This document shows, piece by piece, positions 13,095 through 54,228 of a DNA stretch of 64,000 nt. A program made the position numbers and the translations under genes. The notes below the pieces were generated by a model. The model had not been told where the DNA came from and did not search any database. It saw only the letters and a program-made list of their open reading frames with translations. The stretch is from Pseudomonadota bacterium (GTDB taxonomy: Bacteria; Pseudomonadota; Gammaproteobacteria; Steroidobacterales; Steroidobacteraceae): NCBI GenBank assembly GCA_016713725.1, contig JADJOO010000020.1:4192-68191 (forward strand). Direction: 5' to 3'. How positions within the stretch are numbered: position 1 is the stretch's first letter; every line of letters starts with the position of its first letter.

Positions 13095-15506
13095 TGGATA
13101 TGGCTGCAACCGACTCATTACGGCTGATCGACGCTGCCGCCGCGGGCCAACGGCTCGACAGTACGGCGGCGGCGCTGCTGGTGCATGCGCCGCTCGCATC
13201 GCTCATGCACACCGCCGAGGAGCTGACCCTGGCCGGCTTCGGTTCGACGGTCAGCTACTCGCGCAAGGTCTTTATCCCGCTCACACAGTTGTGCAGGGAT
13301 GTCTGTCACTACTGCACGTTCGCGAAGGCGCCGCGCCGCCTCGCGCAGCCCTACCTGTCGCCGGATGAAGTATTGGCGATCGCGCGGGCGGGCCAGGCCC
13401 ATGGTTGCAAGGAAGCACTGTTCACGCTGGGCGACAAGCCGGAATTGCGCTATGCCGTGGCTCGCCGCGCGCTCGCTCAGCACGACGCCGTAACGACACT
13501 CGAATACCTCGAGCGGATGGCAGTGTTGGTGTTCCGCGAGAGCGGCTTGCTGCCGCACCTCAATCCGGGTGTCATGAATCGCGAGGAACTCGCACGCCTG
13601 CGGCCGGTCGCAGCCTCGATGGGGCTGATGCTGGAGTCGGGCGCCGAGCGGCTGGCGATGCGCGGTGGCCCGCATTTCGGCTCGCCGGACAAGCAGCCGA
13701 CGCAGCGTCTAGCGACGCTGCGCGCGGCAGGTGAACTCAGTATACCCGTGACGACTGGCCTGCTGATCGGCATCGGCGAAACCCGCCGCGAGCGGCTGGA
13801 GTCGCTACTTGGGCTGCGGGCGCTGCACGAGGAGTTCGGCCACCTCGGAAATCATCATCCAGAATTTCCGCGCCAAGCCGGGGACTCGCATGGCCTCCGG
13901 CGCCGGAGCCGACGCTCGAGGAGCAGCTCTGGACTATCGCGGTCACACGATTGCTGTTTGGTCCTCGGATGTCGATCCAGGCACCGCCGAATCTTCAGCC
14001 CAATGCGCTGGTACCGTTGCGGTCCGCCGGAATCAACGACTGGGGCGGCGGGTCACCCGTGACGCCGGATCACGTGAACCCGGAGGCGCCGTGGCCGCAT
14101 CTTGCGGCACTGGAGCGCCAGACGGAGGAAGCAGGGCGGGAACTCGTCGAGCGTCTTGCAATTACGCCCGCGTACGTGCGCGATGCGGGTCGCTGGGCAG
14201 ACGAGGGCATGGCGCGGCACATCCGCCGCATGAGCGATGCGCGGGGTTACGCGCGAACGAATGCATGGTTTGCCGGATCGGCTTCAGCGATCCCGGATGA
14301 GGCGGCGAACTGGATGTCGGGCGGTCCGCGCACTGTGGCCGGTCGGGGACGCCTGACTTCGATCCTCGCGGCAGCGCAGGCCGGACGGGATCTAGCCGAA
14401 CAGGAGATTGTTGAACTCTTTACGGTCGCGGATCACGACCTTCCGGCGGTGCTTACGGCAGCCGATGAACTGCGCAGAGTCGCCGTCGGCGAGACGGTGA
14501 CATACGTCGTCAACCGCAACATCAACTACACGAACGTCTGCAACTACCGTTGCGGGTTCTGTGCCTTTCGAAGGGGCGGAGTGCAAGGGGCCTGCGTGGC
14601 CCTGCGTACGATTTGTCCCCTGACCGAGATCGCGGAACGGACGCGCGAGGCCGCTGCGGTGGGTGCTACGGAGGTCTGCCTGCAGGGCGGCATCCACCCG
14701 AGTTACACGGGCGAGACCTATCTTCGTATCGTACGCGCAGTCAAGGAAGCGGTACCGTCGATGCACGTGCACGCATTCTCGCCGCTCGAGATCCGACACG
14801 GCGCCGCGACGCTGGGACTTGAGCTGCGGGAGTATCTGTCGCGGCTCGCCGCTGACGGACTCTCGAGCCTGCCAGGGACCGCGGCAGAGATTCTGGATGA
14901 CGAGGTGCGTAGAGTCATCTGCCCGGACAAGCTGACGACGTCAGAGTGGCTGGAGACGGTAGCTGATGCGCATGCCGTGGGGCTCAGGTCGACCGCAACG
15001 ATCATGTACGGCCATGTGGACGCGCCGGTGCACTGGGCACGTCACCTGCTGCGAGTCCGCGCGCTGCAGGCAGCGACTGGCGGGATCACCGAGTTCGTGC
15101 CGTTGCCGTACGTCCACATGGAGGCCCCCCTCTGGCGCCGCGGTCTCACGCGTTCGGGGCCGACCTTCCGCGAGGCGGTGCTGATGCACGCGGTCGCGCG
15201 ACTCGTGCTGCATCCGCTGGTGACAAACATCCAGGTCTCGTGGGTCAAGATGGGGCCCGAAGGCGCGGCGCTGTGTCTGCGAGCCGGAGCCAACGACCTC
15301 GGCGGAACTTTGATGAATGAATCGATCAGCGCGCGGCCGGTGGCGTGCACGGTCAACTGCTGACCCGCGAGCAGCTCGCGGCCATTGCTGCTAGCCTCGG
15401 ACGGCCGATCCGACAGCGCACAACGTTCTACCAGAGCACTGAGCAGAAAGTGGCGTGTGGTGGTTCGCGTCGCGTCGCTGCTGCAGCCGCCGATTCGTTC
15501 GCCTGA
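13094..15506 (+). pseudogene. fbiC: Bifunctional FO synthase FbiC (CofG+CofH radical-SAM domains), at least 5 frameshifts as sequenced
   Basis: CofG half (CRDVCHYCTFA...) and CofH half (NYTNVCNYRCGFCAF..., GGTLMNESIS). Frame changes lie near 13850, 13900, 14570, 14620 and 15340. The C-terminus (...GRPIRQRTTFYQS...) ends at TGA 15504-15506. Confidence 0.8.
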
Positions 15507-15614
15507 ATTTCGACGTGACCTGCTTGAAATACGGCTACAACGCGTCGGCCGGTCCATGGTCTCGACACGGTCGGAGCATCAAGGCGCGATCTAATCTTTC
15601 GGAGCACCATCGGT

Positions 15615-16298
15615 ATGAATGAGGCGACCTTCCCTGTAGTTGCTGTCATCGGCGGCACAGGCAACCTTGGTCACGCCCTTGCCAGGCGCTGGGCGCAGGC
15701 CGGCTACACGCTGGTGCTTGGGTCGCGTGACTCCGTCCGCGCCGACGCCGCGGCGACGGCAATGCGAGATGCGGTTCCCAATGCCAGGGTGCGAGGCCTT
15801 ACGAATCGAGATGCAGCGCTTGCGGCCGATATCGTTGTTCTGGCCGTGCCGTACGCTTCGCAGGAGGCAACCCTCGATGAGATTCGGGACGCCGTACAAG
15901 GCAAGTTAGTGGTCGACACAACCGTGCCACTTGTGCCGCCGAAGGTCATGCGCGTGCAACTTCCTCCGGAGGGTTCGGCGGCAGTTCGAGCACAGGGACT
16001 CCTGGGGCCGGCTGTGACGGTCGCCTCTGCGTTTCACAGCACAGCCGCACATCGATTGGAGACCGATGACACGATTGATTGTGACGTATTGGTCTTTGGT
16101 GACTCAGGGAAGCGCGTGATCGCGTCATGGGAGCTCGTCTCGGCAGCGAGGCTTCGCGGCCTTCATGGCGGCGCATTGGCGAACTCGGCTGCCGCCGAGG
16201 CATTGACGTCGGTCCTCATCTTCATCAATAAGCACTATACAGCCGACGGGGCTGGCATCCGCATCACAGGAAAGCTGATCCCACCCGCACCAGGTTGA
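15615..16298 (+). CDS. npdG: NADPH-dependent F420 reductase (Fno/NpdG)
   Basis: VAVIGGTGNLGHALARRWAQAGYTLVLGSRD plus a family-like C-terminus, inside the F420 cluster. Confidence 0.8.
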   Translation: MNEATFPVVAVIGGTGNLGHALARRWAQAGYTLVLGSRDSVRADAAATAMRDAVPNARVRGLTNRDAALAADIVVLAVPYASQEATLDEIRDAVQGKLVVDTTVPLVPPKVMRVQLPPEGSAAVRAQGLLGPAVTVASAFHSTAAHRLETDDTIDCDVLVFGDSGKRVIASWELVSAARLRGLHGGALANSAAAEALTSVLIFINKHYTADGAGIRITGKLIPPAPG

Positions 16299-17074
16299 GT
16301 GTGATGGCCAGCGCGTCGCTGATTTTCCATGCGCTGCCCAGCATTCCGGAGATTGCGCCGGGAACCGACCTTGCGTCGATCGCGGAGCACGCACTGCTGG
16401 CCGCCCGGATCGAGGTGCGCGCTGGCGATGTACTGGTTTTCGCGCAGAAAGTCGTCTCCAAGGCTGAAGGCCGCTTGGTGCGGCTCCGTGACGTCCAGCC
16501 TTCGAGCCGGGCGCTGGAACTCGCAGCGCGCTGCCTGAAAGACCCGCGACTGGTGGAACTGGTCCTGGCCGAATCGAGCGAGGTGGTCCGGGTCGCGCCC
16601 AATGTCCTGGTGACCCGACACCGTTGTGGATACGTCATGGCCAATGCGGGCATCGATCATTCGAACACCGGTACGGCACCGGATGCCGGTGTGGTGCTGC
16701 TCCTGCCGATCGACGCTGATGCATCCGCGCGCGCGCTGTGCAGCGCGCTCCGAGCCCGGCTCGGCATCGCTCCGGGCGTGATCGTCAGCGACAGTTTTGG
16801 CCGGCCGTGTCGCATGGGAACGGTCAATGTCGCGCTGGGTGTGGACGGGTTGCCGTCAATCGTGGACATGCGTGGTGGGTGCGATCGCGACGGGCGCAGG
16901 CTGCAGGTCACTCAGGTAGCGATCGCAGACGCCATTGCTGCCGGTGCAGGCCTGGCCATGGGCGAGGCCGCCGAGGGAGCGCCGATCGTGCACGTGCGGG
17001 GCTTTGCGTCGACCGAGCCATGCAGTGACGGCCAAGCACTGATCCGCCCGGCGAAGGAGGACCTGTTTCGGTGA
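16295..17074 (+). CDS. cofE: Coenzyme F420-0:L-glutamate ligase CofE (single domain, no FbiB-type C-terminal nitroreductase domain)
   Basis: VFAQKVVSKAEGR, VMANAGIDHSN, VIVSDSFGRP.R.G..NVALG motifs. Overlaps the npdG stop and the cofD start. Confidence 0.85.
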   Translation: MSVMASASLIFHALPSIPEIAPGTDLASIAEHALLAARIEVRAGDVLVFAQKVVSKAEGRLVRLRDVQPSSRALELAARCLKDPRLVELVLAESSEVVRVAPNVLVTRHRCGYVMANAGIDHSNTGTAPDAGVVLLLPIDADASARALCSALRARLGIAPGVIVSDSFGRPCRMGTVNVALGVDGLPSIVDMRGGCDRDGRRLQVTQVAIADAIAAGAGLAMGEAAEGAPIVHVRGFASTEPCSDGQALIRPAKEDLFR

Positions 17075-18045
17075 CCAAGACTGCGAAAGTGCTCGCCATC
17101 TCGGGTGGCATCGGTGGCGCCAAGCTGGCGCTTGGTTTGCAGCGCGTGCTGCCGCCGGGCGACCTTGCCGTGCTCGTGAATACCGGCGACGATTTCCGGC
17201 ATCTCGGGCTCGCGATCTCGCCCGACCTTGATACGGTGCTCTACACATTTGCCGGCGTTGCCAATGCCGGGGCCGGTTGGGGTCGCGAAGGCGAAACCTG
17301 GAATTTTCTCGAGGAACTGCGTCGGATCGACGGCCCAGCCTGGTTCCAGCTGGGCGACCGCGACCTCGTGGTCCACGTCGAGCGGACGAGCCGGCTGGCC
17401 CTCGGTGAGTCACTCACTTCGATCATGGCCGCCCTCGGCCGCCGATTCGGCGTGCCGAGTGCGATCCTTCCGATGACCGACGACGCGGTGGCCACCCTGC
17501 TCGACACGGACGCCGGAGTGCTGGAGTTCCAGGAGTACTTCGTGCGCCGGCGTTGTGAACCGAGGATTCGTGCCGTGCGGTACGCAGGGGCCGCAACCGC
17601 TACCGCAAACCCGGCGTTGACCGGGCTGCTGGCGTCGCCGGAGCTGGAATGCGTGGTGATTTGCCCGTCGAATCCGTACCTGAGCATCGGACCGGTCCTC
17701 GCGATCGCTGGGTTGCGCGACGCCCTGGCCCGCTGCCCCGTCCCCGTCGTGGTGATCTCGCCGATCATCGGCGGGCGCGCGGTCAAAGGGCCGACGGTCA
17801 AGCTGATGCGTGAACTCGGTGTCGATGTTTCACCACGATCCATCACGGAGCACTATGCAGGCCTCATCGACGGCCTCGTGGTCGATTCCGAGGACATGGC
17901 GTTTGCATCGGCCACTGGGGTGCCTACGCTAGTGACGCCAACGCTCATGCAGACCCTTGTCGACCGCGAGGCACTGGCGCGGGCCGCGCTCGGTTTCGCG
18001 GCATCGCTGGCGGCCGCGCCGCGGTTGCCGAGAACTGTACCGTAA
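17071..18045 (+). CDS. cofD: 2-phospho-L-lactate transferase CofD/FbiA
   Basis: VLAISGGIGGAKLALGL...VNTGDDF.HLGL.ISPDLDTVLYT. GTGA overlap with cofE. Confidence 0.9.
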   Translation: MTKTAKVLAISGGIGGAKLALGLQRVLPPGDLAVLVNTGDDFRHLGLAISPDLDTVLYTFAGVANAGAGWGREGETWNFLEELRRIDGPAWFQLGDRDLVVHVERTSRLALGESLTSIMAALGRRFGVPSAILPMTDDAVATLLDTDAGVLEFQEYFVRRRCEPRIRAVRYAGAATATANPALTGLLASPELECVVICPSNPYLSIGPVLAIAGLRDALARCPVPVVVISPIIGGRAVKGPTVKLMRELGVDVSPRSITEHYAGLIDGLVVDSEDMAFASATGVPTLVTPTLMQTLVDREALARAALGFAASLAAAPRLPRTVP

Positions 18046-18197
18046 GCGGCTACGCCGCTACTTCCGCGTCTCCGTATCAGCCCGGCCAACCTGTGCAGCC
18101 TGGCTGCGCGCTTCACTATCCGCCGGCGACACTTTGACGATGCTTTCGTCGTCGCTGTTCCGCGCGCCGGTAGGACTCAGCCCGAGGAGTAGCCCCT

Positions 18198-18326
18198 GGC
18201 GATCGATCCAGTCGTTCTTCCCGAGCTTGGAAAGGCAGACACGCGCCCGGGAAGAACGACTGGATCGATCGCCTGCGGCACGGCGCCTGGGCTCGTCCTC
18301 GGCGCGCCGAAAACTGCGCACGGCGC
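18198..18326 (-). repeat. Two-hairpin repeat element, copy A (3' of the minus-strand TBDR gene)
   Basis: Perfect 26-bp stem (18198-18223 / 18248-18273) around a loop containing GCGCGTGTCTGCCTTTCCAAGCT (sense orientation), plus a 5' module at 18284-18326. The same loop and 5' module recur at 24171-24292. Confidence 0.7.
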
Positions 18327-18372
18327 ACGGTGCGTCGAGATGTGGCAACCCCAGCGTATGAGTCCGGTGGGC

Positions 18373-20463
18373 CTAAAACCTTACGGTCGCGGCAACCCGC
18401 AGCGTGCGCGGCTCCGCAGGATGGAAGTGAATGTCGGCGACGGGCTGCGATTCGCTGGGCAGCTGCGACTCGTAGAAGTAGCTGATGTCGCTGGCTTCCG
18501 CATCGAACAGGTTGAAGACCGACGCCATCACGCTCAGGCGTGGCGAGAAGCGGTAGCCGGCCTGCGCATTCACGGTCGAGGTCGAGTGCGAGCGTACGCT
18601 GTTGTCCTCGATCAGCGGGGCCGGGCCGAAGTAACGCCAGCGGGCGCCACCGAACCAGCCCAAGTCGCGCTGGATGCTGAGGCCGACCGACACGACGGTC
18701 TCCACGGCACCGGGAATGTAGTTGCCCGCGGGGTCGTACTCGGTGAACCGGGCATGCGACCACGAGTAGTCCGCGTCCAGGATCACCGTTTCGAACGGGG
18801 TCCAGTACGCGCCGAGTTCGACGCCATAGCGCCGGGTTGCGCGGCTTGGCTCGGTGATGCCGCCGTCACCGACGAACAGCAGTTCCGAGTCGATGTCCAG
18901 GTTCCACAAGGCGGCCGTCAACTGCAGGCCGGGCACAGCCGCGGTGCGGACGCCGATTTCCGTGCCGGTGGCCGGCACGATTGGATCGACGGGATCGGCC
19001 TGGGTAACTCCGTCCGTGGGATCGACGCGGATCGTCGTGCCGCGGGCGTCGTTGGTGTGAAAGCCGCGACCCGCGTTCAGGAAGACCTCCGTCTCCGCCC
19101 ACGGCCCCAGCACGACCGTCAGTTTCGGGCTCGCGATCGAATCGGTCTCGTCGCCGGAGTTGGCCGGGAGATCGCTGTCGACCGAGAAATCCAGGTAGTC
19201 GAAGCGGAGTCCCGCCTCCGTGCGCAGCCAGTCCGTCCAGCGCTGGTCATGGATGACGTAGGCCGAGTACTGCGCCTGGCGGACGTCGTCCTTGCGGATC
19301 GTCTCGAACCGCTCGCGGGCGAAGGTCCGGTACAAGGCGACCGGTGTGATGTCGTCCATGCGCAGTTCGGCGCCGGCGCGCAGTGAGCCGTCGAGCCCGT
19401 TCAACGAAGCCGGCAAGTCGTACTCGAAGTGACCGCCGTACACGCGGCGACTGTCGTACTGCTCGAACTGGTCGCCGTCGACCGGGTCGAGCGCGTAGGT
19501 GAAGTTCGAGAACAGGTCGAGGTGGTAGTCGATGGCGTAGGCCAGCGCCGACCAGCCGCGCCCGTCGTGCCGGGACCACGCGTCGAGCGACAGGCTGTAG
19601 CGATGCGACTCGCCGCCCGTGGTGTCGTCCACGTGACCGAAGCGCGGGATCAACCCGGCATCCACGGCCCGCTGCGGAACCTGGTCGGTGCTGTCCCAGC
19701 TGCCGTCGTAGCCCATGCCCGTGACGGCGAACCCGGCCTCGGCAGTGCCGCGGCTGTACTTGATGACCCCGCTGGTCTTCTGGAAATCCTCGGGCAGTGT
19801 CCAGGGCCCGTCGGTCTGCGACCAGTCGAGGCCCAGCAGCAGCGTCCCGCCCGCCACCTGCGGCGAGGCGCTGGCGAACAGCCGATAGTAGTTGTCCTCG
19901 CCGACCGTCAGGCCCAGCGTTGGCGCGCCGCTGTCGCGGATGTAGGAGATGCGCGCCGCGCCGGCCGCCGAGAAGTTTCCTTCTTCAGCAAAGTAGGGAC
20001 CCTTGCGGTATTGCACGGTATCCACCAGCTCGTGGACCAGGAAGTTGATGTCGGCGTACCCCTGGCCATGGGCGTGGGTCGGCATGTTCACCGGCACGCC
20101 GTCCACGTAGCTCGCAAAGTCGGTGCCATGGTCGAGGTTGAAGCCGCGCAGGAAATACTGGTTCGCCTTGCCGTCGCCACTGTGCTGCGTGACAACCAGC
20201 CCGGGTACGACCTCGAGCACTTCGCCGGGTCGCAGGACCGGCCGGCCCTGCAGCTGCGCACTCGTGACGATGCCTTCGCTCGCGGCCCGCGACTCGCCGA
20301 TCAGCCCGATGCGCTGGGCAGTGACCACGATCTCCTCGAGCGGGGTGCCGGTGGGAATGCCGGAGGCCAGGGCGCTGCCCGGCAATGCCAGGATGACGAG
20401 CGCTGCGGCGGTTGCCAGCGACGGTTGGCGCTGATTGCGTGGCATGGGCAGGCTGTCCATCAT
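18373..20463 (-). CDS. TonB-dependent receptor, probably nickel-regulated
   Basis: Signal peptide, plug (EEIVVTAQR, NQYFLRGFNLDHGTD) and terminal ...ATVRF. A NikR-type operator lies in its promoter. Confidence 0.9.
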   Translation of the reverse strand: MMDSLPMPRNQRQPSLATAAALVILALPGSALASGIPTGTPLEEIVVTAQRIGLIGESRAASEGIVTSAQLQGRPVLRPGEVLEVVPGLVVTQHSGDGKANQYFLRGFNLDHGTDFASYVDGVPVNMPTHAHGQGYADINFLVHELVDTVQYRKGPYFAEEGNFSAAGAARISYIRDSGAPTLGLTVGEDNYYRLFASASPQVAGGTLLLGLDWSQTDGPWTLPEDFQKTSGVIKYSRGTAEAGFAVTGMGYDGSWDSTDQVPQRAVDAGLIPRFGHVDDTTGGESHRYSLSLDAWSRHDGRGWSALAYAIDYHLDLFSNFTYALDPVDGDQFEQYDSRRVYGGHFEYDLPASLNGLDGSLRAGAELRMDDITPVALYRTFARERFETIRKDDVRQAQYSAYVIHDQRWTDWLRTEAGLRFDYLDFSVDSDLPANSGDETDSIASPKLTVVLGPWAETEVFLNAGRGFHTNDARGTTIRVDPTDGVTQADPVDPIVPATGTEIGVRTAAVPGLQLTAALWNLDIDSELLFVGDGGITEPSRATRRYGVELGAYWTPFETVILDADYSWSHARFTEYDPAGNYIPGAVETVVSVGLSIQRDLGWFGGARWRYFGPAPLIEDNSVRSHSTSTVNAQAGYRFSPRLSVMASVFNLFDAEASDISYFYESQLPSESQPVADIHFHPAEPRTLRVAATVRF

Positions 20464-20571: not shown

Positions 20572-21145
20572 ATGCAACGCACGACGATCACGCTCGACGA
20601 CGACTTGATGGAGCGGCTGGATGAGTTCATGGCGGATCGCCGCTACGCCAACCGCAGCGAGGCCATTCGCGACCTGGTGCGCGCCGGCCTCGAGCAGTCG
20701 ACCCTCGATGGCGCAGCCGACGCGCAGTGCCTCGGGGCGGCCATCTACGTCTTCGATCACAACGCCAGGGAGCTCGCGAGCCGGCTCACCCACGCAGCGC
20801 ACGATCATCACGACCTGTCGGTCGCGACGCTGCACGCACCTCGATCACGACAGCTGCATGGAAGTCAACGTCCTGCGCGGGCAAGTCGGCGATGTTCGTC
20901 ACTACGCCGATCACGTCATTGCGGAGCGTGGTGTCCGGCATGGGCGCCTCGTGCTGGTGCCTGCTGAATTTTCGACGGAAACCCATGCGCATGGCGGTGC
21001 GAAGCTTTCGCGACACTCGCATTTGCACGTCAAGCGATCCCTAGGCGGGGCTTCGCCTCATTGCTTGAATGGCCAGAGATCTCGTCGCAACGATCAAACG
21101 GGCGGACTGCGGATAACCGCAGGTCGCGGACCGCGCCCGCCCTGA
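20572..21145 (+). pseudogene. nikR: Nickel-responsive regulator NikR, one frameshift near 20835; 3' end uncertain
   Basis: RHH N-terminus MQRTTITLDDDLMERLDEF...NRSEAIRDLVR. The C-domain HDLSVATLH / HLDHDSCMEVNVLRGQVGDVRHYADHVIAERGVRHGRL continues in the frame of ORF 20621. Confidence 0.8.
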
Positions 21146-21815: not shown

Positions 21816-24157
21816 ATGCGACCTCGTCCGATTGCAGTTACCGTGTTCCCTTGGCCCTCTACGCCGCCCAGGGTGTGGCGGCGGATAGTGCCCCCAACCT
21901 CGAAGAAATCATGGTCACGGCCCGGCGGATTCTCACGCCCGGCCTCGGCGCCATCGGCCTCGATGGCGCCGAGATTGCCCGCAAACGCGCCCGCACCAGC
22001 GACACCGCCAGTCTGCTCGCGGGCCTTCCAGGGGTCAGCGTCTATGGCGCCGGAGGAGTTTCCAGTCTGCCGGTCATCCGCGGCCTCGCGGACGACCGCC
22101 TGCGCACGCAGGTGGACGGCATGGACCTCGTGGCCGCCTGTCCCAACCACATGAACTCACCACTCTCCTATATCGACCCCACGGCCGTGGCCAGCGCCGA
22201 CGTTTACGCTGGCGTCACGCCGGTGAGCGTCGGCGGCGACAGCATCGGCGGCAGCATCGTGGTGCGTTCTGCGGACCCCGCGTTCGCGCAGCCTGGCTCT
22301 CATCTTGTGCAGGGTGAAGCCGGCACGTTCTATCGCGGCAACGGTGATGGATGGGGCGGAAATCTCTCCGGCACGTTCGCTACGGAAACCTTCAGCCTCA
22401 ACTACACCGGCGCCTTCGCCCAGGCCGACAACTACCAGGCTGGCGACAGCTTCAAGCACTACACGTTCACCGGTCGGGCGGGCCACACGCTACCCACCGC
22501 CGAAGTCGGATCCACGGCCTACGACTCCCGCAACCAGACAGTCCGGCTTGCATGGCGCAGTGGCAGTCACCTGCTGGATTTCAGTTACGGCTTCCAGGAC
22601 ATCCCGTACGAGCTCTATGCCAACCAGCGCATGGACATGGCGGAGAACCAGAGCGACCGGTTCAACCTTGCCTACACCGGCGGTCTCGACTGGGGAACCC
22701 TGCAGGCGCGGGTGTACTACCAGCACACCGAGCACGAGATGGACTTCGGCGACGACAAGCGCTTCTGGTACGGACCGGGACAGCCGCCAAGCGGGTCAGG
22801 CGGGGATACAGCCCTGAACGGCTCACCCTGCTCGCCGATCTCCGGCTCGATGATGGTGAGCGGCCAGATTGTCGGTTGCGCTGCCGGCATGCCGATGATG
22901 ACTGACGGCAGGAATACGGGAGTCTCCGTCAGCGCGGCGATCCCGCTGGCCGAGCAGAGTCTGCTGCGCGTCGGTGGCGAGTATCAGGAGAATCGGCTGG
23001 ACGACTGGTGGCCGCCCTCCGGTGCGGGCATGTGGCCGTACGATTTCCTGAACCTGAACGACGGACAGCGTGACCGCTACGCCGCTTATGGTGAATGGGA
23101 GATTGGCAACGAACGCTGGACGCATATCCTGGGCGCCCGCTTTGAAACCGTGAACATGAGTGCAGTCCCGGTTCACGGCTACAACCTCGACTCGTATCCG
23201 ACCAGCGGCGTTGGCGGCATGGGCAACCAGACGCGAGACGCGGCGCTGTTCAACGCCAGCTCACGCGGCAAGACGGACGACAACTGGGACCTCTCATGGA
23301 TCGGCCGCTTCGTACCGGGCGCGACTCAGGCTTACGAGATCGGCCTGGCGCAGAAGACCCGCTCGCCCAACCTGTATGAGCGCTACACCTGGTCCACGTG
23401 GCAGATGGCGGCGTTCATGAACAACTTCGTCGGCGACGGCAACGGCTACGTGGGGGACGTGAACCTGAAGCCGGAGGTGGCTCGCACAGTGAGCCTCACG
23501 GCCAACTGGCACGATGCCGATTCCGAGCAATGGAGTGCCAAACTGACACCGTACTACACGGACGTGCAGGACTACATCGACGCGGTGCAATGGGATGCCG
23601 TGACGAACACGCGCCGCGCCGTGCCCGTGGTCGGCAACTTTACCGTGCTCCGGTACGCCAACCAGTCCGCCCAACTCTACGGCGCAGACCTTGCGGCTGA
23701 CTACCGGCTGACAGACACGACCGATTACGGGAAGTTCTCAGCCCAGCTCGTGGCGAGCTACACCAGGGGCAGGAACGAGGATACGGATGGCAACCTCTAC
23801 AACATCATGCCGCTGAACGCCAAGCTGGCTTTCACGCAAGAACTCGGCTCGTGGCGCAATGCCCTGGAGGGCGAATTCGTGGCGGCGAAGGATGACGTCT
23901 CCGCGGTGCGCAACGAAATGCAGACCGCGGGCTACGGTCTTGCGCACCTGCGCAGCCGCTACGAGCGAGCCACCTGGAGCGTGGAGGTCGGCATCGAGAA
24001 CCTGTTCGACCGTTACTACGAGCTGCCGCTGGGCGGCGCTTACGTCGGTCAGGGCACGACGATGACGGTCCCGCCCGTGCCCAACCAGCCGCAATGGGGC
24101 ACTCCGGTGCCCGGTGCGGGCCGTTCAATATATGCGAGCGTCAACATGAAGTTCTAA
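21816..24157 (+). CDS. OprC/NosA-like TonB-dependent copper receptor (frame break in the signal-peptide region near 21845; ORF intact from 21851)
   Basis: ATG at 21816 with GGAG upstream encodes MRPRPIAVTV... and joins LALYAAQGVAADS. Plug EEIMVTARR; CPNHM (CxxxM) and HEM (HxM) motifs; terminal ...SVNMKF. Confidence 0.8.
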
Positions 24158-24170
24158 AGCCAGCCTGCGA

Positions 24171-24292
24171 GCGCCGTGCAATTTTCCGGCGTGCCGGGAA
24201 ATTGCTCAGGCGCTGAATCGCGAGCGTTCGGTCCGGGGCCTTTCCCGGAGCGCGTGTCTGCCTTTCCAAGCTCCGGGAAAGGCTCCGGATCG
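24171..24292 (+). repeat. Two-hairpin repeat element, copy B (3' of the plus-strand OprC-like TBDR gene)
   Basis: 12-bp hairpin 24178-24189/24194-24205 (loop CGTG). Then a 22-bp stem 24229-24250/24271-24292 around the same loop sequence as copy A. Confidence 0.7.
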
Positions 24293-24393
24293 GACGCCCG
24301 CTATCACTCCTTGAGCACTCGTCCCGCATACCCAAAGCAGCAACACGCCCAGCAGCGACGAACAACCGCTACTGGACGCGTCAGGTGCGCCGG

Positions 24394-25842
24394 TCAGGCC
24401 TGCTGCCGGATCCGCGAATGCTTGTAGCCGTACAGGAAGTAGATGAGGAAGCCGAGTCCAGTCCAAAGCGCCAGCCGGATCCACGTGTCGTGCGGCAGGA
24501 AGAGCGTCATGGCGAGGCAGATTGCCACGCCGGCCACGCCGGTGAAGGTGGCGAACGGCACGCGGAACGGACGCGGCGTATCTGGCTGCGTGCGGCGCAG
24601 CACGACAACGCCGGCGCACACCGCGCTGAATGCCAGCAGGATACCGATCGAGATCAATTCGCCAAGCACGTCGAGTGGAAAGATGCCGGCAAAGAACGCA
24701 GCGACCAAGCCGGTGATGATCGTAGCAACGTGCGGCGTGCGGTACTTCGGATGCACCTTCTGCATCGACGGCGGCAGCAGGCCATCGCGCGACATTGCCA
24801 TGAAAATGCGCGGCTGGCCGAGCAGCGACATCAGGATCACGGAGGTGAGGCCGACGATCGCACCGATCTTGACCGGCAGGCCGAGCCACTTCAGCTCCGG
24901 ATGGGCGTCGAGCGCGACCGCGACCGGTGCGGCGACGTTGAGTTCCGTGTACGACACCATGCCGGTCATCACGGCAGACATAAGGACATAGAGCACCGTC
25001 GAGATGAGCAGTGCCGCGATGATGCCCCACGGTACGTCGCGCTGCGGATTGCGGGCTTCCTGCGCCGTCGTCGCGGCCTGGTCGAAGCCGATGTAGGCAA
25101 AGAAGATGATTGCGGCGCCCTGCATGATGCCACTGAAGCCGAATTGTCCGGAGGTGCCTGTATTGGCGGGAAGGTAGGGCTGCCAGAGGTCGGGTGTCAC
25201 GTATTTGATGCCGACCGCGATGAACAGGACGATGATCAGGATCTTGATGATCACCATCACGTTATTGACGCGGGTCGACTGCTTCACGCCGACGTAACAC
25301 ACCCAGGTGAGCAGCGCGACGATCAGCACGGCCGGCACGTTGACCAGGGCGCCCGTCCTCACCAGGTGATTTTCCGCGCCTTTGCCAAGCGGCGCATTGG
25401 TGAGCGCGTCGGGCAGGTGGAGGCCGAATTCGGCGAGCAGGTTGACGACGTAGCCCGACCATCCGACCGCGACGGCAGCGCCCGACATCACGTATTCCAG
25501 CGCGAGGTTCCAGCCGACGAACCAGGCGACACCCTCGCCGAGCGTCGCGTACGTATAGCTGTAGGCGCTGCCCGAGATCGGGATCATCGAGGCCAGCTCG
25601 GCATAGCAGAGCGCGGCCAGACCGCAGCCGATGGCGGCCACGAGGAAGGCGAGGGTGACGGCGGGGCCAGTGTGCTGGGCGGCCACGGTGCCCGTCAGGA
25701 CGAAAATGCCGCTGCCGATCATCGAGCCCAGGCCGACGGAGGTCAGCGCTCGGCGGTCCAGTACGCGATTCAGCTTGGGCCCGGATTCGATTTCGCGAGT
25801 CATCGCAGCCACCGATTTGCGGGCTGCCAGCTGTTTCAGCAC
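24394..25842 (-). CDS. APC-family amino acid permease
   Basis: 12-TM profile with SVGLGSMIGSGIFVLTG and AELASMIPISGSAYSY motifs. Confidence 0.9.
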   Translation of the reverse strand: MLKQLAARKSVAAMTREIESGPKLNRVLDRRALTSVGLGSMIGSGIFVLTGTVAAQHTGPAVTLAFLVAAIGCGLAALCYAELASMIPISGSAYSYTYATLGEGVAWFVGWNLALEYVMSGAAVAVGWSGYVVNLLAEFGLHLPDALTNAPLGKGAENHLVRTGALVNVPAVLIVALLTWVCYVGVKQSTRVNNVMVIIKILIIVLFIAVGIKYVTPDLWQPYLPANTGTSGQFGFSGIMQGAAIIFFAYIGFDQAATTAQEARNPQRDVPWGIIAALLISTVLYVLMSAVMTGMVSYTELNVAAPVAVALDAHPELKWLGLPVKIGAIVGLTSVILMSLLGQPRIFMAMSRDGLLPPSMQKVHPKYRTPHVATIITGLVAAFFAGIFPLDVLGELISIGILLAFSAVCAGVVVLRRTQPDTPRPFRVPFATFTGVAGVAICLAMTLFLPHDTWIRLALWTGLGFLIYFLYGYKHSRIRQQA

Positions 25843-27444: not shown

Positions 27445-28482
27445 GTGAAACCTCGTCGGCGCCGGTTGCGCGAACCTGCGTGGACGCGGCTCGACGATGA
27501 GGCGCTGCTCGACATGCGCCTCTGCGACCTGCGCCTGTCGCTTGCACGGTCGGGCCTCGACCAGCCGGTGCAACGCCTCTACGAGGAATTGCGGCTCAAG
27601 GGCATCCTCTTCCGTCCGCATGTCTGGCTGTCCGAAGAATGGTTCTCGCCGGACGGCGTTCCCGGGATCGCCGTGCCGTTCTTCCTGGCGCATCCGCGGC
27701 TGCAGCGCCTCGAACGGCGCTTCATGCGCGAGGTCGAGGGTGGCAACGACAAGTGGCTGATGCGCATCCTGCGCCACGAAACCGGGCATGCGATCGACAC
27801 TGCGTTCGGGCTGCGGCGGCGCAAGACCTGGCGCGACACGTTCGGCAAGGCCTCGCGCCGATATCCGTCGCGGTATTCCCCGCGGCCAGCCAGCCGCCGG
27901 TTCGTGCTGCACCTCGGCCACTGGTACGCGCAGAGTCATCCCACCGAAGATTTCGCCGAAACGTTCGCCGTCTGGCTGCCGCGCAGATCGCGCTGGCGCA
28001 GCCAGTACGCCGGCTGGCCCGCGCTGCGCAAGCTCGAATACGTCGACGCGACGATGCGCAACCTGCATGGCAAGCGCGCGGTGTGCCTGAACCGCGATGT
28101 CGTCGAGCCGCTGGCCGAGAATACCCGCACGCTGCGCGAACACTATCGGCGCAAACAGCGGCGTTACGAACTCAACACCGCGCGCACTTACGATCGTCGC
28201 CTGCTGCGCGTGTTCGGCACCGCAGAGGATCACCCGTCCGGGCCGCAGGCCAGCAGGTTCCTGCGCAAGGTGCAGCCGCAGGTCGAGCGGTTGATGATTC
28301 GTCGCGCGAGAATGCACCCGTACCTGGTCCAGCACGTCCTGAAAATAGCGACCCAGCGCGCACGCCGCATGAACCTGCGGCTCAGTCACAACCAGCGCGA
28401 CACCAAGCGTGCGGTGCTGGTGATGCTCGAGCGCATCATGCTTGAGATGTTGCTGCGGGACCGCGAGAACTACGCCCTATGA
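27445..28482 (+). CDS. Putative zinc metallopeptidase (HExxH), conserved partner of the downstream ATP-grasp gene
   Basis: LRHETGHAID motif and HPTEDFAETFAVW. GTG at 27445 lies 22 nt after the upstream stop. The stop overlaps the next start (ATGA). Confidence 0.7.
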   Translation: MKPRRRRLREPAWTRLDDEALLDMRLCDLRLSLARSGLDQPVQRLYEELRLKGILFRPHVWLSEEWFSPDGVPGIAVPFFLAHPRLQRLERRFMREVEGGNDKWLMRILRHETGHAIDTAFGLRRRKTWRDTFGKASRRYPSRYSPRPASRRFVLHLGHWYAQSHPTEDFAETFAVWLPRRSRWRSQYAGWPALRKLEYVDATMRNLHGKRAVCLNRDVVEPLAENTRTLREHYRRKQRRYELNTARTYDRRLLRVFGTAEDHPSGPQASRFLRKVQPQVERLMIRRARMHPYLVQHVLKIATQRARRMNLRLSHNQRDTKRAVLVMLERIMLEMLLRDRENYAL

Positions 28483-29510
28483 CCAAGAAACCCCTGCGCG
28501 TGCTCGTGCTCGTGCACGAAACGCTGGTGCCTCCCGAGTCCACCGACGGCTACTCTCCACAGGAGGTCGACGAGTGGCGCACCGAGTACGACGTGACCTC
28601 GTCGCTGAAGGCGATGGGGCACGAGGTGAGGGCGCTTGGCATGGGCGACAACCTGGCCGAACTGCGCTCCACGATCATGGAGTGGAAGCCCGACATCGCC
28701 TTCAACCTGCTCGAGGAATTCCAGGGCATCGTCACGTACGACCAGTACGTGGTGGCCTTTCTGGAGCTGATGCGGCTGCCGTACACCGGCTGCAACCCGC
28801 GCGGCATGATGATCTCGCGCGACAAGGTGCTGTCGAAGCAGATTCTCGCCTACCACCGCATTCCCACCGCGCGGTACGCGCTGCTGCCGCGCAAGCGCCG
28901 CTATGTCGAGCCGCGCAAACTCAAATTCCCGCTGTTCGTCAAGTCGGCCACCGAGGATGCCTCGCTCGGCATCTCGCAGGCCTCGATCGTCTACGACGGC
29001 CAGAAGCTGCGGGAGCGAGTCGAGTTCATCCACGAGCAGACGAATTCGGATGCTCTGGTCGAGGAGTACATCGAAGGCCGCGAACTCTACATCGGCGTGA
29101 TGGGCAACGAGAGGCTGACGACCCTGCCGGTGTGGGAACTCAATTTCGGCACGCTGCCCGACGTGATGTCGATCGCGACGCGCAAGGTGAAGTGGGACCG
29201 CAAGTACCAGGTGCGGCACGGCATCGGCACGGGTCCCGCCCTTGATTTGCCGCCCGGCCTGTCGCCGCGGCTCGCCACACTCGTGCGGCGCATCTATCGC
29301 GCGCTGTCACTCAGCGGGTATGCGCGAATCGACTTGCGCTTGAAGCCGGACGGCGGGGTGTACGTGCTCGAGGCAAATGCGAATCCCAACCTCGCCCAGA
29401 TCGAGGATTTCGCGACCTCGGCGCTCGCTTGCGGCATGGAATACGACGCCGTGCTGGAGCGGATCCTGCAGTACGGGCAGAACTACGACGCGGCATGGCG
29501 GCAGTCCTGA
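28479..29510 (+). CDS. ATP-grasp protein, D-alanine--D-alanine ligase family
   Basis: LRVLVLVHE...KPDIAFNLLEEF..., FPLFVKSATEDASLGI, EEYIEGRELYIGV, ARIDLRL...YVLEANANPNL. Confidence 0.85.
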   Translation: MTKKPLRVLVLVHETLVPPESTDGYSPQEVDEWRTEYDVTSSLKAMGHEVRALGMGDNLAELRSTIMEWKPDIAFNLLEEFQGIVTYDQYVVAFLELMRLPYTGCNPRGMMISRDKVLSKQILAYHRIPTARYALLPRKRRYVEPRKLKFPLFVKSATEDASLGISQASIVYDGQKLRERVEFIHEQTNSDALVEEYIEGRELYIGVMGNERLTTLPVWELNFGTLPDVMSIATRKVKWDRKYQVRHGIGTGPALDLPPGLSPRLATLVRRIYRALSLSGYARIDLRLKPDGGVYVLEANANPNLAQIEDFATSALACGMEYDAVLERILQYGQNYDAAWRQS

Positions 29511-29623
29511 CTACGCGCCGATGATCTGAGGCGTGCGAGTGGCGGCGGCGCCTTGTCGCGAGCGCGAGTGTGCCTCTTGGCCCAAGCTCAGGGACAGGCG
29601 CCTGATCGCACGCCTGGATCGGT

Positions 29624-30022
29624 CTAGAGCGTGCGGCCCGTCTTCTGGAAGTGCGTGCGCTCGAAGATCGTCTGGCAGTCGATGCAGCGCAACGCCTGTG
29701 GCGTGAGGTTCAGCCGCTTCACATCGATCGGCTTGTCGCACGCTTCGCAGACGCCGTAGCTGCCATCCGCCACTCGCAGCAGCGCTGCGTCGATCGCGCG
29801 CAGTTCGTCGAGGTCGCGATCGATTTCGGCGAGGCCGACGTCCACGATCAGGTCGGCGAACGATTCGTCCTCCAGTTCCCGCACCGAGTCGGCGATCTGC
29901 AGATAGTGTTCCGAATCGCTCCGGATCAGCGCCTGGCGGATTTCTTCGCGCAACTGGATTTGCCGCGCGCGCATGGCCGTTTGCAGCGACTCGAGCTGCT
30001 TGTTCTGGAGGTTGCGAGTCAT
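29624..30022 (-). CDS. DksA/TraR-family C4 zinc-finger protein
   Basis: CEACDKPI...CIDC zinc finger after a coiled-coil region. ATG at 30022 is 7 nt from AAGGAAG. Confidence 0.75.
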   Translation of the reverse strand: MTRNLQNKQLESLQTAMRARQIQLREEIRQALIRSDSEHYLQIADSVRELEDESFADLIVDVGLAEIDRDLDELRAIDAALLRVADGSYGVCEACDKPIDVKRLNLTPQALRCIDCQTIFERTHFQKTGRTL

Positions 30023-30133
30023 CGCCATCTTCCTTGGGACACTGCCCAAGGATCGGACGCGATCCGCGCCACAGATATAGGGAAGATGCGAAATTCATTG
30101 CGCCAAATGCGGCTGGTCCTGCGGATGGCCGTG

Positions 30134-51679: not shown

Positions 51680-53460
51680 ATGCCCATGCGCACTCACTAT
51701 TGCGGCGACGTCAACGAACGCCTCGTCGGCTCCACTGTCGACGTGGCCGGCTGGGTCCACCGTCGCCGCGACCACGGCGGCGTCATTTTCGTCGACCTGC
51801 GCGACCGCGACGGCCTGCTGCAGGTCGTCTTCGATCCAGACGCGGCCGAGGTCTTCGCCGAAGCCGAGCGTCTCCGTGGCGAGTGGGTGATCAAAGTGAC
51901 CGGCACGGTGCGGCCGCGGCCCGCGGGCACGGCCAATGCGAACCTGGCCTCGGGCCAGGTCGAGCTGCTCGCGCGCGGCATCGAAGTGCTGAACCGCTCG
52001 GAGCCGATCCCGTTCCAGCTCGACGAGGAAGTAAAGGAAGAGACGCGGCTCAAGTACCGCTACATCGACCTGCGCCGCGACGTGATGCAGAAGCGCCTGC
52101 GTCAGCGTCACGCGATCACGCGCTCGATGCGCGAGTACCTCGACGGCAACGGCTTCATCGACGTCGAGACGCCGATGCTGACCAAGGCCACGCCGGAAGG
52201 CGCGCGCGACTACCTGGTGCCAAGCCGGACGCAGCCGGGCAAGTTCTTCGCGTTGCCGCAGTCGCCGCAGATCTTCAAGCAGCTGCTGATGATGTCGGGC
52301 TTCGACCGCTACTACCAGATCGTGCGCTGCTTCCGCGACGAGGACCTGCGCGCCGACCGCCAGCCCGAGTTCACGCAGCTCGACATCGAGACGTCGTTCC
52401 TGACGCGCGACGAGATCATGGGACTCATGGAGAGCCTGGTGCGCAAGCTCTTCCAGGACGTGCTCGGCCAGTCGCTGCCCGAGCCGTTCCCGCGCATGAC
52501 GTACGCCGAGGCGATGCGCCGCTACGCGTCGGACAAGCCGGACCTGCGCATCCCGCTCGAGCTGGTCGACGTCGCCGACCTGGTCAAGGACTGTGAATTT
52601 AAGGTGTTTTCCGGCCCGTCAGCGGATCCGGAAGGTCGTGTCGCCGCGTTGCGCGTCCCGCAAGGCGGGGAGAAGCTGTCGCGCAAGCAGATCGACGACT
52701 ACGCCGCATTTGTCGCGCGCTACGGCGCGAAGGGCTTGGCATACGTCAAGGTCAACGATGTGACGAAGGGCCGCGACGGCCTGCAGTCGCCGATCCTGAA
52801 GTTCCTGTCGGACGCGGCGGTCGCGGGCCTCCTGCAGCGCACCGGCGCGCAGACCGGCGACCTCGTTTTCTTCGGCGCCGACAAGGCCAAGGTGGTCAAC
52901 GACGCGATCGGCGCGTTGCGCATCAAGGTTGGCCAGGACCTGGGACTGGTCGCCGCGGGCTGGGCGCCGCTCTGGGTCATCGACTTCCCGATGTTCGAAT
53001 GGGATGCGGATTCGAAGCGCTGGGCCGCGATGCACCACCCCTTCACGTCGCCGGTCAACGACGACGCGGCGGCGCTCAAGGCCAGCCCAGGCGAGGCGCT
53101 GGCGCGCGCCTACGACATGGTGCTGAACGGCTCCCGAGATCGGCGGCGGCTCGGTGCGTATCCATCGCAACGAGATGCAGTCGACCGTGTTCGAGATGCT
53201 CGGCATCGGCGCCGAGGAGGCCGAGAAGAAGTTCGGCTTCCTGCTCGAGGCGCTCAAGTACGGCGCGCCGCCGCACGGCGGCATGGCGTTCGGGCTCGAC
53301 CGCCTGGCCATGCTGATGGCGGGCGCCGGGCTCGATCCGCGACGTCATCGCCTTCCCGAAGACGCAGACCGCCACCTGCCCGCTGACCGACGCCCCGACC
53401 GAGGTGTCCGAGCAGCAGCTGCGCGACCTGCACATCCGCGTCAAGCTGCCTGAGAAATAG
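51680..53460 (+). pseudogene. aspS: Aspartate--tRNA ligase, two frameshifts near 53135 and 53335
   Basis: MRTHYCG..., [18 protein letters not shown]. The C-terminus is spread over three frames ([18 protein letters not shown]...[18 protein letters not shown]...KLPEK, stop 53458-53460). Confidence 0.9.
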
Positions 53461-53552
53461 GGGACATTCACCTATTTCCACTCATTTCCAAACGCAGTGC
53501 TGGTGGTGCATGGACGGTTGCCGGAAATAGGTGAATGTCCCCTATTTCTCAG
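53450..53552. repeat. Perfect 30-bp inverted repeat with a 43-nt spacer
   Basis: CCTGAGAAATAGGGGACATTCACCTATTTCC (53450-53479) pairs exactly with 53523-53552. The left arm contains the aspS stop codon and the right arm the ATG of the next gene. Confidence 0.85.
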
Positions 53553-54228
53553 CGCGATCCGGTCATCCTGGTTCACGGCCTGTGGATGACAGGGCTGGAA
53601 TTCGGGGTGTTGCGCCAGCGCCTGCAGACGCGGCACGGTTTCGACGTGCACGTGTTTTCCTATTCTTCGTTGCATGGCAGCGCCGTCGAGATTGCGGGCG
53701 AGCTCGCGGAGTTCGTCGGTGTGCAGGCGCAGGCGAGCGGGCGCGTGCACCTGGTCGGTCACAGCCTCGGTGGTGCGATCGTCTACAAGGCGCTGGCAGA
53801 ACACGGCCTGCGCGACCGCCCGGGCAACGCGGTGCTGTTGGGGTCGCCGCTCAACGGCAGTCGCGCCGCGCAGGGCGCTGCGCGCCTTGCCGTGCTGCGA
53901 CCGCTGCTCGGCCCCCACATCCTGCACGGCCTGGCCGAACCCTGCGGCCGCTGCTGGTCGTGCGGCTCGCCCACGGCGTTGGGCGCGATCGCGGGGACGC
54001 GACGCATGGGCGCGGGCCAGTTCTTTGCGCACTTCGACGAGGAGAACGACGGCACCGTCGCCCTGAGCGAGACCATGATTCCCGGCCTCCGATGACCACC
54101 TGGTTCTGCCGCACAGCCATATCGGCCTGCTGTTCGCGAACGACGTGGCGGGCCAGGTCGCACATTTCCTGAGGCATGGACGTTTCGAGAAGGCGTCGGC
54201 AGGACGAACCAAGCTTGACGGCAGGTAG
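53535..54228 (+). pseudogene. Alpha/beta hydrolase (lipase/esterase-like), one frameshift near 54090
   Basis: PVILVHGLW, nucleophile elbow GHSLGG. The C-terminus continues as DHLVLPHSHIGLLF... to TAG 54226-54228. Confidence 0.7.

Follow-up and report, generated by a model that had tools for sequence, protein, structure and literature searches.

Two TonB-dependent receptor (TBDR) genes in the window, by which we mean the whole stretch of 64,000 nucleotides analysed here, are each followed by a long hairpin, and the two hairpins have the same loop. The locus raises the question of whether these hairpins belong to the receptor genes, for example as 3′UTR RNAs or protein-binding structures as a first-pass annotation of the DNA had suggested, or are copies of something with a wider distribution. 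The features that bear on this question are as follows, in window positions.

17071-18045, plus strand: cofD-like gene (Pfam CofD 9.8e-40), its 3′ end facing the copy A tail
18150-18197, minus strand: copy A tail, pyrimidine-rich (AGGGGCUACUCCUCGGGCUGAG...), facing the 3′ end of cofD; its 3′ limit is not sharp
18198-18273, minus strand: copy A long hairpin (5′ arm 18245-18273, loop 18227-18244, 3′ arm 18198-18226)
18283-18333, minus strand: copy A 5′ module, read from the sequence as box GCACCGUGCGCCGUGCG, small variable hairpin UUUUCGGC/GCCGAGGA and box CCCAGGCGC
18373-20463, minus strand: TBDR1, TonB-dependent receptor gene 1 (Pfam TonB_dep_Rec_b-barrel 3e-29, Plug 2.6e-13)
21851-24157, plus strand: TBDR2, TonB-dependent receptor gene 2 (Pfam TonB_dep_Rec_b-barrel 2.1e-23, Plug 2.1e-13), on the head side of copy B
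24165-24213, plus strand: copy B 5′ module, CCUGCGAGCGCCGUGC, perfect small hairpin AAUUUUCCGG/CCGGGAAAUU and GCUCAGGCGC
24224-24297, plus strand: copy B long hairpin (5′ arm 24224-24251, loop 24252-24269, 3′ arm 24270-24297)
24298-24311, plus strand: copy B tail (CCGCUAUCACUCCU...), facing the 3′ end of the amino-acid permease gene
24394-25842, minus strand: amino-acid permease gene (Pfam AA_permease_2 1.1e-60), its 3′ end facing the copy B tail; this neighbour is kept syntenic in relatives
29519-29627, plus strand: copy C, decayed, in the convergent spacer of genes 28479-29510 (plus) and 29624-30049 (minus)

The head of copy A faces TBDR1, and the two have the same sense. The string at which the element was first taken to start (GCGCCGTGCGCAG..., 18326) comes 46 nt after the TBDR1 stop codon (TAG, 18375-18373), and the corresponding start at 24171 comes 13 nt after that of TBDR2 (TAA, 24155-24157). 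These coordinates, strings and distances, like the shared loop and 3′ flank, proved correct throughout. The element itself begins slightly earlier: the string at 18326 is as described, but the 5′ edge of the family lies a few bases upstream, at 18333 in copy A and at about 24165 in copy B, where synteny with three related loci (L033, L099 and L050) begins (24165-24167). The tail motif ACUCCUYGRGC is common to copies A and B and to loci L033 and L099.

The stem reported for copy A (18198-18223 paired with 18248-18273, 26 bp) is perfect, and RNAfold lengthens it to 29 bp around the 18-nt loop GCGUGUCUGCCUUUCCAA; the 203-nt region has a minimum free energy (MFE) of -115.7 kcal/mol (z = -6.3 against dinucleotide shuffles). 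Copy B has a 28-bp stem with two G·U wobbles in its outer part, a loop identical to that of copy A, and a z of -6.9 against dinucleotide shuffles (RNAfold). A 23-mer common to both copies is found at exactly two sites in the window, even with three mismatches, and matched in none of 100 shuffles. The two long stems had been described as sharing essentially no sequence, which holds for the middle of the stem but not for its outer parts: these are homologous (GCGaTCGaTCC in copy A versus GCGtTCGgTCC in copy B), and the middle alone differs.

A covariance model (125 distinct units; R1) finds three copies of the element in the window. The long hairpins of copies A and B score 96.9 bits (E 2.6e-20) and 101.1 bits (E 2.8e-21), respectively, and copy C scores 25.7 bits (E 7.5e-4). 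Copy C has accumulated substitutions and two insertions in its loop and stem, and its neighbours are not TBDR genes. Its orthologue in locus L031 (around 1446-1545) is an intact unit; the alignment is about 90% identical overall, with nearly all differences inside the unit and the flanks almost unchanged. We note that the model also matches, by virtue of its helix only, an unrelated long inverted repeat at 53448-53556 (GC 0.51; arms of about 30 bp, CTGAGAAATAGGGGACATTCACCTATTTCC..., 43 nt apart) in the spacer that precedes the 53535-54095 gene.

A strong GC-rich hairpin just past a stop codon is what an ordinary Rho-independent terminator would look like, and copies A and B might be such a terminator duplicated by chance. 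Neither copy has a U tract, however, and scans of both found no terminator-like sites (nor sigma-70-like promoters), in agreement with the initial judgement that a plain intrinsic terminator does not explain the element. Stems of 28-38 bp with an 18-nt loop are far beyond terminator dimensions. Terminators that arose independently would also not share a conserved loop and 5′ module or number hundreds of homologues. We consider this explanation very improbable.

Two observations concern the surrounding genes. A set of F420 biosynthesis genes on the plus strand (13951-18045; CofH-like radical SAM, F420-dependent NADP oxidoreductase, F420-0:gamma-glutamyl ligase and CofD) converges on TBDR1. An ORF with a NikR C-terminal domain (20621-21145) lies between TBDR1 and TBDR2, which hints at nickel-related uptake.

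Distribution and anatomy of the repeat family

We scanned one genome per species and the JGI metagenomes for the loop 20-mer. It was present at at least 116 genome loci and on at least 120 metagenome contigs, more than 236 loci in both scans together. Carriers among the 80 genome matches listed were Steroidobacteraceae, Gammaproteobacteria or Proteobacteria MAGs. Two to four copies are found at many of the loci, on either contig strand, and few copies lie inside called genes (8 of 182 genome copies, 10 of 224 metagenome copies); the element thus has many copies confined to extragenic space, as REP sequences do.

This distribution bears directly on the proposed link to TBDR or metal-uptake genes. 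In favour of a 3′UTR regulatory RNA or protein-binding hairpin specific to such genes are the sense orientation of copies A and B, their short distances from the two receptor stops, and the NikR-like gene between the receptors. Yet none of the 224 genes adjoining units outside the window is a TBDR gene (jackhmmer seeded with the two receptors of the window, E 1e-5). The 125 non-redundant neighbours whose 3′ end faces a unit are spread over 220 Pfam families with at most three members each, and TBDR is not among the recurrent families. Orthologues of copy B (L033, L099 and L050) sit beside the same permease gene, with a different upstream gene that is not a receptor. On the permease side the window aligns with these relatives at 78-87% identity, and this synteny breaks off where the unit begins (24165-24167), which suggests a rearrangement breakpoint at the repeat; the adjacency of copy B to TBDR2 is lineage-specific. 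With copy C away from any TBDR gene and hundreds of copies at unrelated sites, a receptor-specific role is extremely improbable. The case also carries a caution for annotation, as hairpins seen in a single window can be misread as gene-specific regulators.

We looked for the element among known families. The window has no match in Rfam 15 at gathering score, and with an E-value threshold there were only chance-level matches (E at least 0.3), for two loci with copy B orthologues. A tRNA/tmRNA scan returned none, and full-text literature searches on the loop sequence and on Steroidobacter with REP found no matching paper. Copies A, B and C belong to a previously undescribed family of intergenic repeats, modular and hairpin-forming, that is dispersed in the genomes of Steroidobacteraceae-like Gammaproteobacteria. 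The family adds a well-defined structured intergenic repeat to a little-studied lineage of soil, sludge and sediment.

The anatomy of the family was derived from an alignment of 57 full-length copies and a loop-anchored consensus. A full unit measures about 140-200 nt, and its hairpin repeat unit about 85-100 nt with a stem of 28-38 bp and a loop of 18 nt. The 5′ edge is sharp, at GC(U/A)(G/C)CGUGCGCCGUGC, with unrelated DNA upstream. The parts then follow in the order: (i) a conserved 5′ box, GCUGCGUGCGCCGUGCGA, and a small hairpin whose stem differs between copies; (ii) the box GCUCAGGCGC, which pairs back to GCGCC, and a linker of 8-10 nt; (iii) the long hairpin, of 28 to about 38 bp, and the linker GCAAC; and (iv) often, one or more extra modules of loop plus 3′ arm, with a tandem period of 57-58 nt. 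The 5′ module is present in 57 of 169 copies, about a third, and the others consist of the hairpin only.

Within the long stem the base (GCGnnCGAUCCGG) and top (CCCGAGC) are conserved, and about 10 bp in mid-stem and two near the base vary freely and are compensated; there are 206 different inner 17-mers among 342 units. In a scan of all loci for long hairpins that was itself free of loop bias (n = 137), 121 hairpins had the canonical loop and 12 a variant of it (133 of 137 with the loop core), a constancy that is partly built in because the loci had been collected by exact loop match. A near-constant apical loop over a hypervariable, fully compensated stem is one of three strikingly clean traits of the family.

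The variant loops are mostly the 12-nt UGUCUGCCUUUC. They form a subfamily (UGUCUGCCUUUC or UAUCUGCCUUUC; L003:3098, L042:1465, L074:2319, L094:5839, L102:2798 and 4987, L114:4674) in which the loop is shorter because extra pairs close it, and these variants therefore define a narrower invariant loop core. At one locus (L090:826-960, plus) the 5′ module is normal, and the loop of the long hairpin after it runs in reverse-complement orientation, as if recombination between the arms had inverted it. A search for the 5′ module by loose regular expression returned mostly coding DNA and a few variant-loop units. The loci also contain 21 copies of another hairpin repeat, CCTCTCCCGC-N-GCGGGAGAGG, which is distinct from the main one, often comes after CCCTCACCCG..CTGCG and has no copy in the window; its sites include L026:831, L028:4740, L059:7254 and 7774, and L062:5734, and it frequently comes directly after the tail of the main element.

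Stem pairing and the folded strand

We assessed covariation over 125 distinct units and a 32-pair structure, using two controls: shuffled 3′ partners and slid partners. Standard pairs occupy 90.2% of stem cells, compared with 74.0 ± 0.4% after the 3′ partners are shuffled, and 651 cells are changed on both sides, compared with 170 in the shuffles. Double changes occur in 30 of the 32 pairs, and sliding the partner by 1-3 columns lowers pairing to 28-44%. Orthologous copies behave in the same way. Copy B and its orthologue in L099 are separated by compensated changes at two pairs and by two changes of wobble type, none of which breaks a pair, and the copy B orthologues in L099 and L033 show compensated changes with G·U intermediates. 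Stem pairing is, on this comparative evidence, under selection, and the early suggestion of selection on structure, made from two copies, is borne out by very strong covariation across the family. The first-pass annotation had reserved a REP/MITE-type reading for the case of many scattered copies without stem covariation; the scattered copies are indeed many, but they covary.

The mismatches that are tolerated indicate which strand folds. In long stems of in-register units, G·T outnumbers A·C on the loop-bearing strand by 99:19 at genome loci and by 91:20 at metagenome loci, and an excess of G·U over A·C of about 5:1 is seen in both data sets and in both hairpins. The small 5′ hairpin, which also covaries across copies, has 31 G·U pairs when read in the sense direction and 8 in the reverse complement, and its summed MFE is -1247 kcal/mol in sense and -1151 kcal/mol in the reverse complement. 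Because such an asymmetry is not expected from a duplex or cruciform role or from symmetric mutation, it shows that the strand carrying GCGUGUCUGCCUUUCCAA folds as a single strand. This is the strand on which the element was originally read, the TBDR sense strand in the window. The G·U asymmetry is also what would suggest that the folded strand acts as RNA, although a strand-specific single-stranded DNA (ssDNA) intermediate would give the same signal. The family thus combines compensatory covariation above controls with strand-specific tolerance of G·U, the two marks of a structured single-strand element, and the 5:1 bias identifies the folded strand without expression data.

Placement, polarity and candidate roles

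Spacer types were called with a codon log-odds gene caller that missed some genes, so the following context counts are approximate.

Convergent spacers: 89 units at genome loci and 89 on metagenome contigs; 108 baseline spacers at genome loci
Tandem spacers: 46 units at genome loci and 45 on metagenome contigs; 369 baseline spacers at genome loci
Divergent spacers: 6 units at genome loci and 5 on metagenome contigs; 102 baseline spacers at genome loci

Adjacent units on opposite strands are always arranged head-to-head (69:0 in genomes and 54:0 in metagenomes, 123:0 in total) and never tail-to-tail, another of the clean traits, with no exception. Hence each unit points its tail toward the stop codon of the adjacent gene. 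The two units lie 100 to about 460 nt apart, the sequences between them are unrelated from pair to pair, and a fixed distance of 107 nt occurs only within a 353-bp element described below. Lone units in wide convergent spacers have the tail near the stop codon in 16 cases and the reverse in 4 (read from distance lists); lone units in tandem spacers are antisense in 25 cases and sense in 12. In the window the tails of copies A and B face cofD and the permease gene, and their heads face the two receptor genes, so that read-through from the receptors would yield the folding strand.

The strong enrichment between convergent genes, where positive supercoils build up, and the palindromic architecture would both fit a role as double-stranded DNA, either as a site at the ends of convergent genes that binds protein or affects topology, or as an extruded cruciform. 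E. coli REP/BIME sequences, which bind gyrase and IHF, would be the precedent. Such a role is strand-symmetric, however, and would leave unexplained the 5:1 ratio of G·T to A·C that one strand shows in both hairpins. A sequence-specific duplex binder would also be expected to keep the arms, and the middle of the stem is hypervariable. We regard a duplex role as improbable.

Our preferred reading, to which we give a probability of about 0.55, is that the units act as read-through RNA 3′-end hairpins with a factor-binding loop and spread by some further route. Transcription of the gene that the head of a unit faces (in the window, the two TBDR genes) would read through into the unit, which would then fold into a very stable structure at the RNA 3′ end. 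This structure may block 3′ exonucleases, stop polymerases before they enter the convergent gene in antisense, or both. The constant loop and conserved stem top would be the binding site of a putative host factor, and a loop-binding protein is the candidate partner to which the family points. New copies would come from a transposition or gene-conversion process, and in some genomes a unit pair rides in the 353-bp element. Among the features that speak against this RNA 3′-end model, copies A and B have neither a U tract nor a promoter-like site, and a read-through transcript entering a head-to-head pair would have to pass through the antisense unit of the pair before it came to the sense one.

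A more tentative proposal, which we think rather unlikely, makes the unit a polar, factor-dependent element. A host protein would read the loop and stem top on unit-sense RNA, with the unit serving as an "anti-antisense" insulator placed tail-first at stop codons, or else the unit would transpose by a loop-specific nick on the single-stranded hairpin instead of by a RAYT enzyme. An insulator of this kind, which would stop or process transcripts before the convergent gene, would explain the 123:0 head-to-head count.

Relation to known repeats and mode of spread

The family resembles the REP/BIME/REPIN sequences of E. coli and Pseudomonas, which are mobilised by RAYT, in several respects. Both are high-copy, extragenic and hairpin-forming; both favour gene 3′ ends and convergent spacers, as inverted pairs or small clusters; and both persist in orthologous spacers, where their copy number varies. 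In size, too, a unit (about 85-95 nt) comes close to a REPIN. The differences lie in what is conserved and how the parts are arranged. In the present family conservation falls on the 18-nt apical loop and on the top and base of the stem, whereas in a REPIN two REP ends are conserved around a less conserved spacer. A REP is a short imperfect palindrome (about 20-40 nt) after a GTAG/GTGG-type tetranucleotide, and the unit described here has neither. Unlike REP/REPIN, it has an extra conserved 5′ module with its own covarying hairpin, and its pairs have variable spacing and unrelated spacers, where the replicative unit of a REPIN is an inverted doublet at fixed spacing.

REP/REPIN systems have a cognate RAYT gene flanked by repeats. 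A phmmer search with E. coli RayT found no match at E up to 10 among six-frame ORFs of at least 70 aa from the window and the 116 genome loci (about 1 Mb), a search whose reach is limited by its single-sequence query and partial sampling. No IS200-like ORF was seen in the same translation, and no transposase lies beside the units examined. We file the element as a structured intergenic repeat of a REP/BIME-like kind, and not as a member of the REP-RAYT family.

Modular intergenic repeats offer a second comparison. BOX elements of Streptococcus pneumoniae have a boxA-(boxB)n-boxC build, and Correia elements have 26-bp terminal inverted repeats (TIRs) with a TA duplication; where effects of BOX, ERIC and Correia elements are known, they concern the stability or termination of adjoining transcripts. 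Like BOX, ERIC and Correia/NEMIS elements, the present family is modular with a variable number of internal modules (here loop, 3′ arm and linker, with the 57-58 nt period), and like BOX, ERIC and Correia elements it is intergenic with a stable predicted secondary structure. It is set apart from all of these by the lack of sequence similarity, and its basic unit has neither the TIRs nor the duplication of Correia elements. We know of no description of hypervariable compensated stems under a constant loop for BOX, ERIC or Correia elements.

A third resemblance is to hairpin substrates of HUH/Y1 enzymes and to integron attC sites, in which a strand-specific single-strand fold is kept more strictly than stem sequence. 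The analogy is mechanistic only: no HUH, Y1 or integrase gene is associated with the family, and inspection revealed no attC core sites. Retron msd, CRISPR, attC and DNA-uptake sequences were also considered and dropped, since genes for a reverse transcriptase, Cas proteins or an integrase were missing from the neighbours scanned, and conservation falls on the loop and not on the arms.

How the units spread can be read in part from their copies. Unit number varies between orthologous spacers, yet we found no empty orthologous site, as every orthologous spacer recovered had at least one unit; L067 differs from L006/L047 by about 430-480 nt, which may be an insertion or a deletion. Stem types are shared by non-orthologous loci: that of copy A recurs, with one mismatch, in L037 and three metagenome contigs. 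Such sharing points to dispersal or gene conversion. Non-orthologous copies are at most about 90% alike outside the 353-bp element, which argues against a recent burst. The basic unit has no visible target-site duplication, with a sharp 5′ edge and a ragged 3′ end, and thus does not have the terminal inverted repeats and target-site duplication at its ends that mark a MITE.

The 353-bp element, in contrast, is a true MITE, and is a carrier of units and not the unit itself. It is found in several related MAGs and carries a head-to-head unit pair 107 nt apart. It has long TIRs beginning GGAAGCUCUGCACAGG / GGAAGCTCTGCACAGGTCCGCAAGTG (GGAAGC...), a CTAG/CTAA-like target duplication and unrelated flanks, and occurs at at least 14 unrelated sites with 90-98% identity, including L016:1175-1527, L021:5330-5683, L023:7041-7393, L056:3241-3593 and L059:3050-3403. 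The TIRs from GGAAGC... and the 4-bp CTAG/CTAA-like duplication resemble those of the IS5 family, whose duplication is YTAR. The window holds no copy of this MITE, and no matching transposase gene was seen.

These data bear on a further explanation, that the family is purely selfish DNA of REPIN/MITE type. The hairpin would be an ssDNA substrate of a transposase, for example a Y1/HUH enzyme that reads the loop and stem top, and the location at gene ends would simply be where insertions are tolerated. High copy number with unrelated flanks, stem subfamilies common to non-orthologous loci, variable unit number at orthologous sites, the decay of copy C and the near-identical copies of the MITE are all consistent with this explanation. 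DNA hairpins, too, tolerate G·T better than any other mismatch, and the strand asymmetry accordingly also fits a strand-specific ssDNA intermediate, and compensatory changes are reported in REPIN hairpins (PMC3116915). Against it stand the missing RAYT, IS200-like and transposase ORFs in the DNA searched, the limited likeness of non-orthologous copies outside the MITE, the lack of a detected target-site duplication of the basic unit, and the strict head-to-head rule with variable, unrelated spacers, which is unlike a fixed doublet replicon. One intercistronic copy, which separates a TAA stop codon from the GTG start of the following gene, shows no difference over about 95 nt among four genomes, compared with 88-94% identity in the coding DNA on either side, and thus evolves more slowly than its coding flanks. 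Other orthologues have decayed or been replaced quickly, as in copy C and in L040 versus L098, where 10 of 28 pairs and the tail lengths differ although the flanks are 96.5% identical; this fits selfish DNA as well as function. Overall, we consider a purely selfish origin the main rival of the RNA 3′-end reading, possible but less likely than it. The family offers a good test case for whether the host selects REP-like repeats as RNA structures or they persist as selfish DNA.

The DNA between widely spaced head-to-head units contains no transposase; its ORFs encode toxin-antitoxin (Gp49/HTH and RES/Xre), Host_attach, cytochrome and TPR proteins. Toxin-antitoxin cassettes lie between two units at L018:3966-5566 and L114:4689-6212 (Gp49/HTH_37; RES/Xre-MbcA). 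The L018 pair is head-to-head (3966, minus; 5566, plus), and the two units in L114 are on the same strand.
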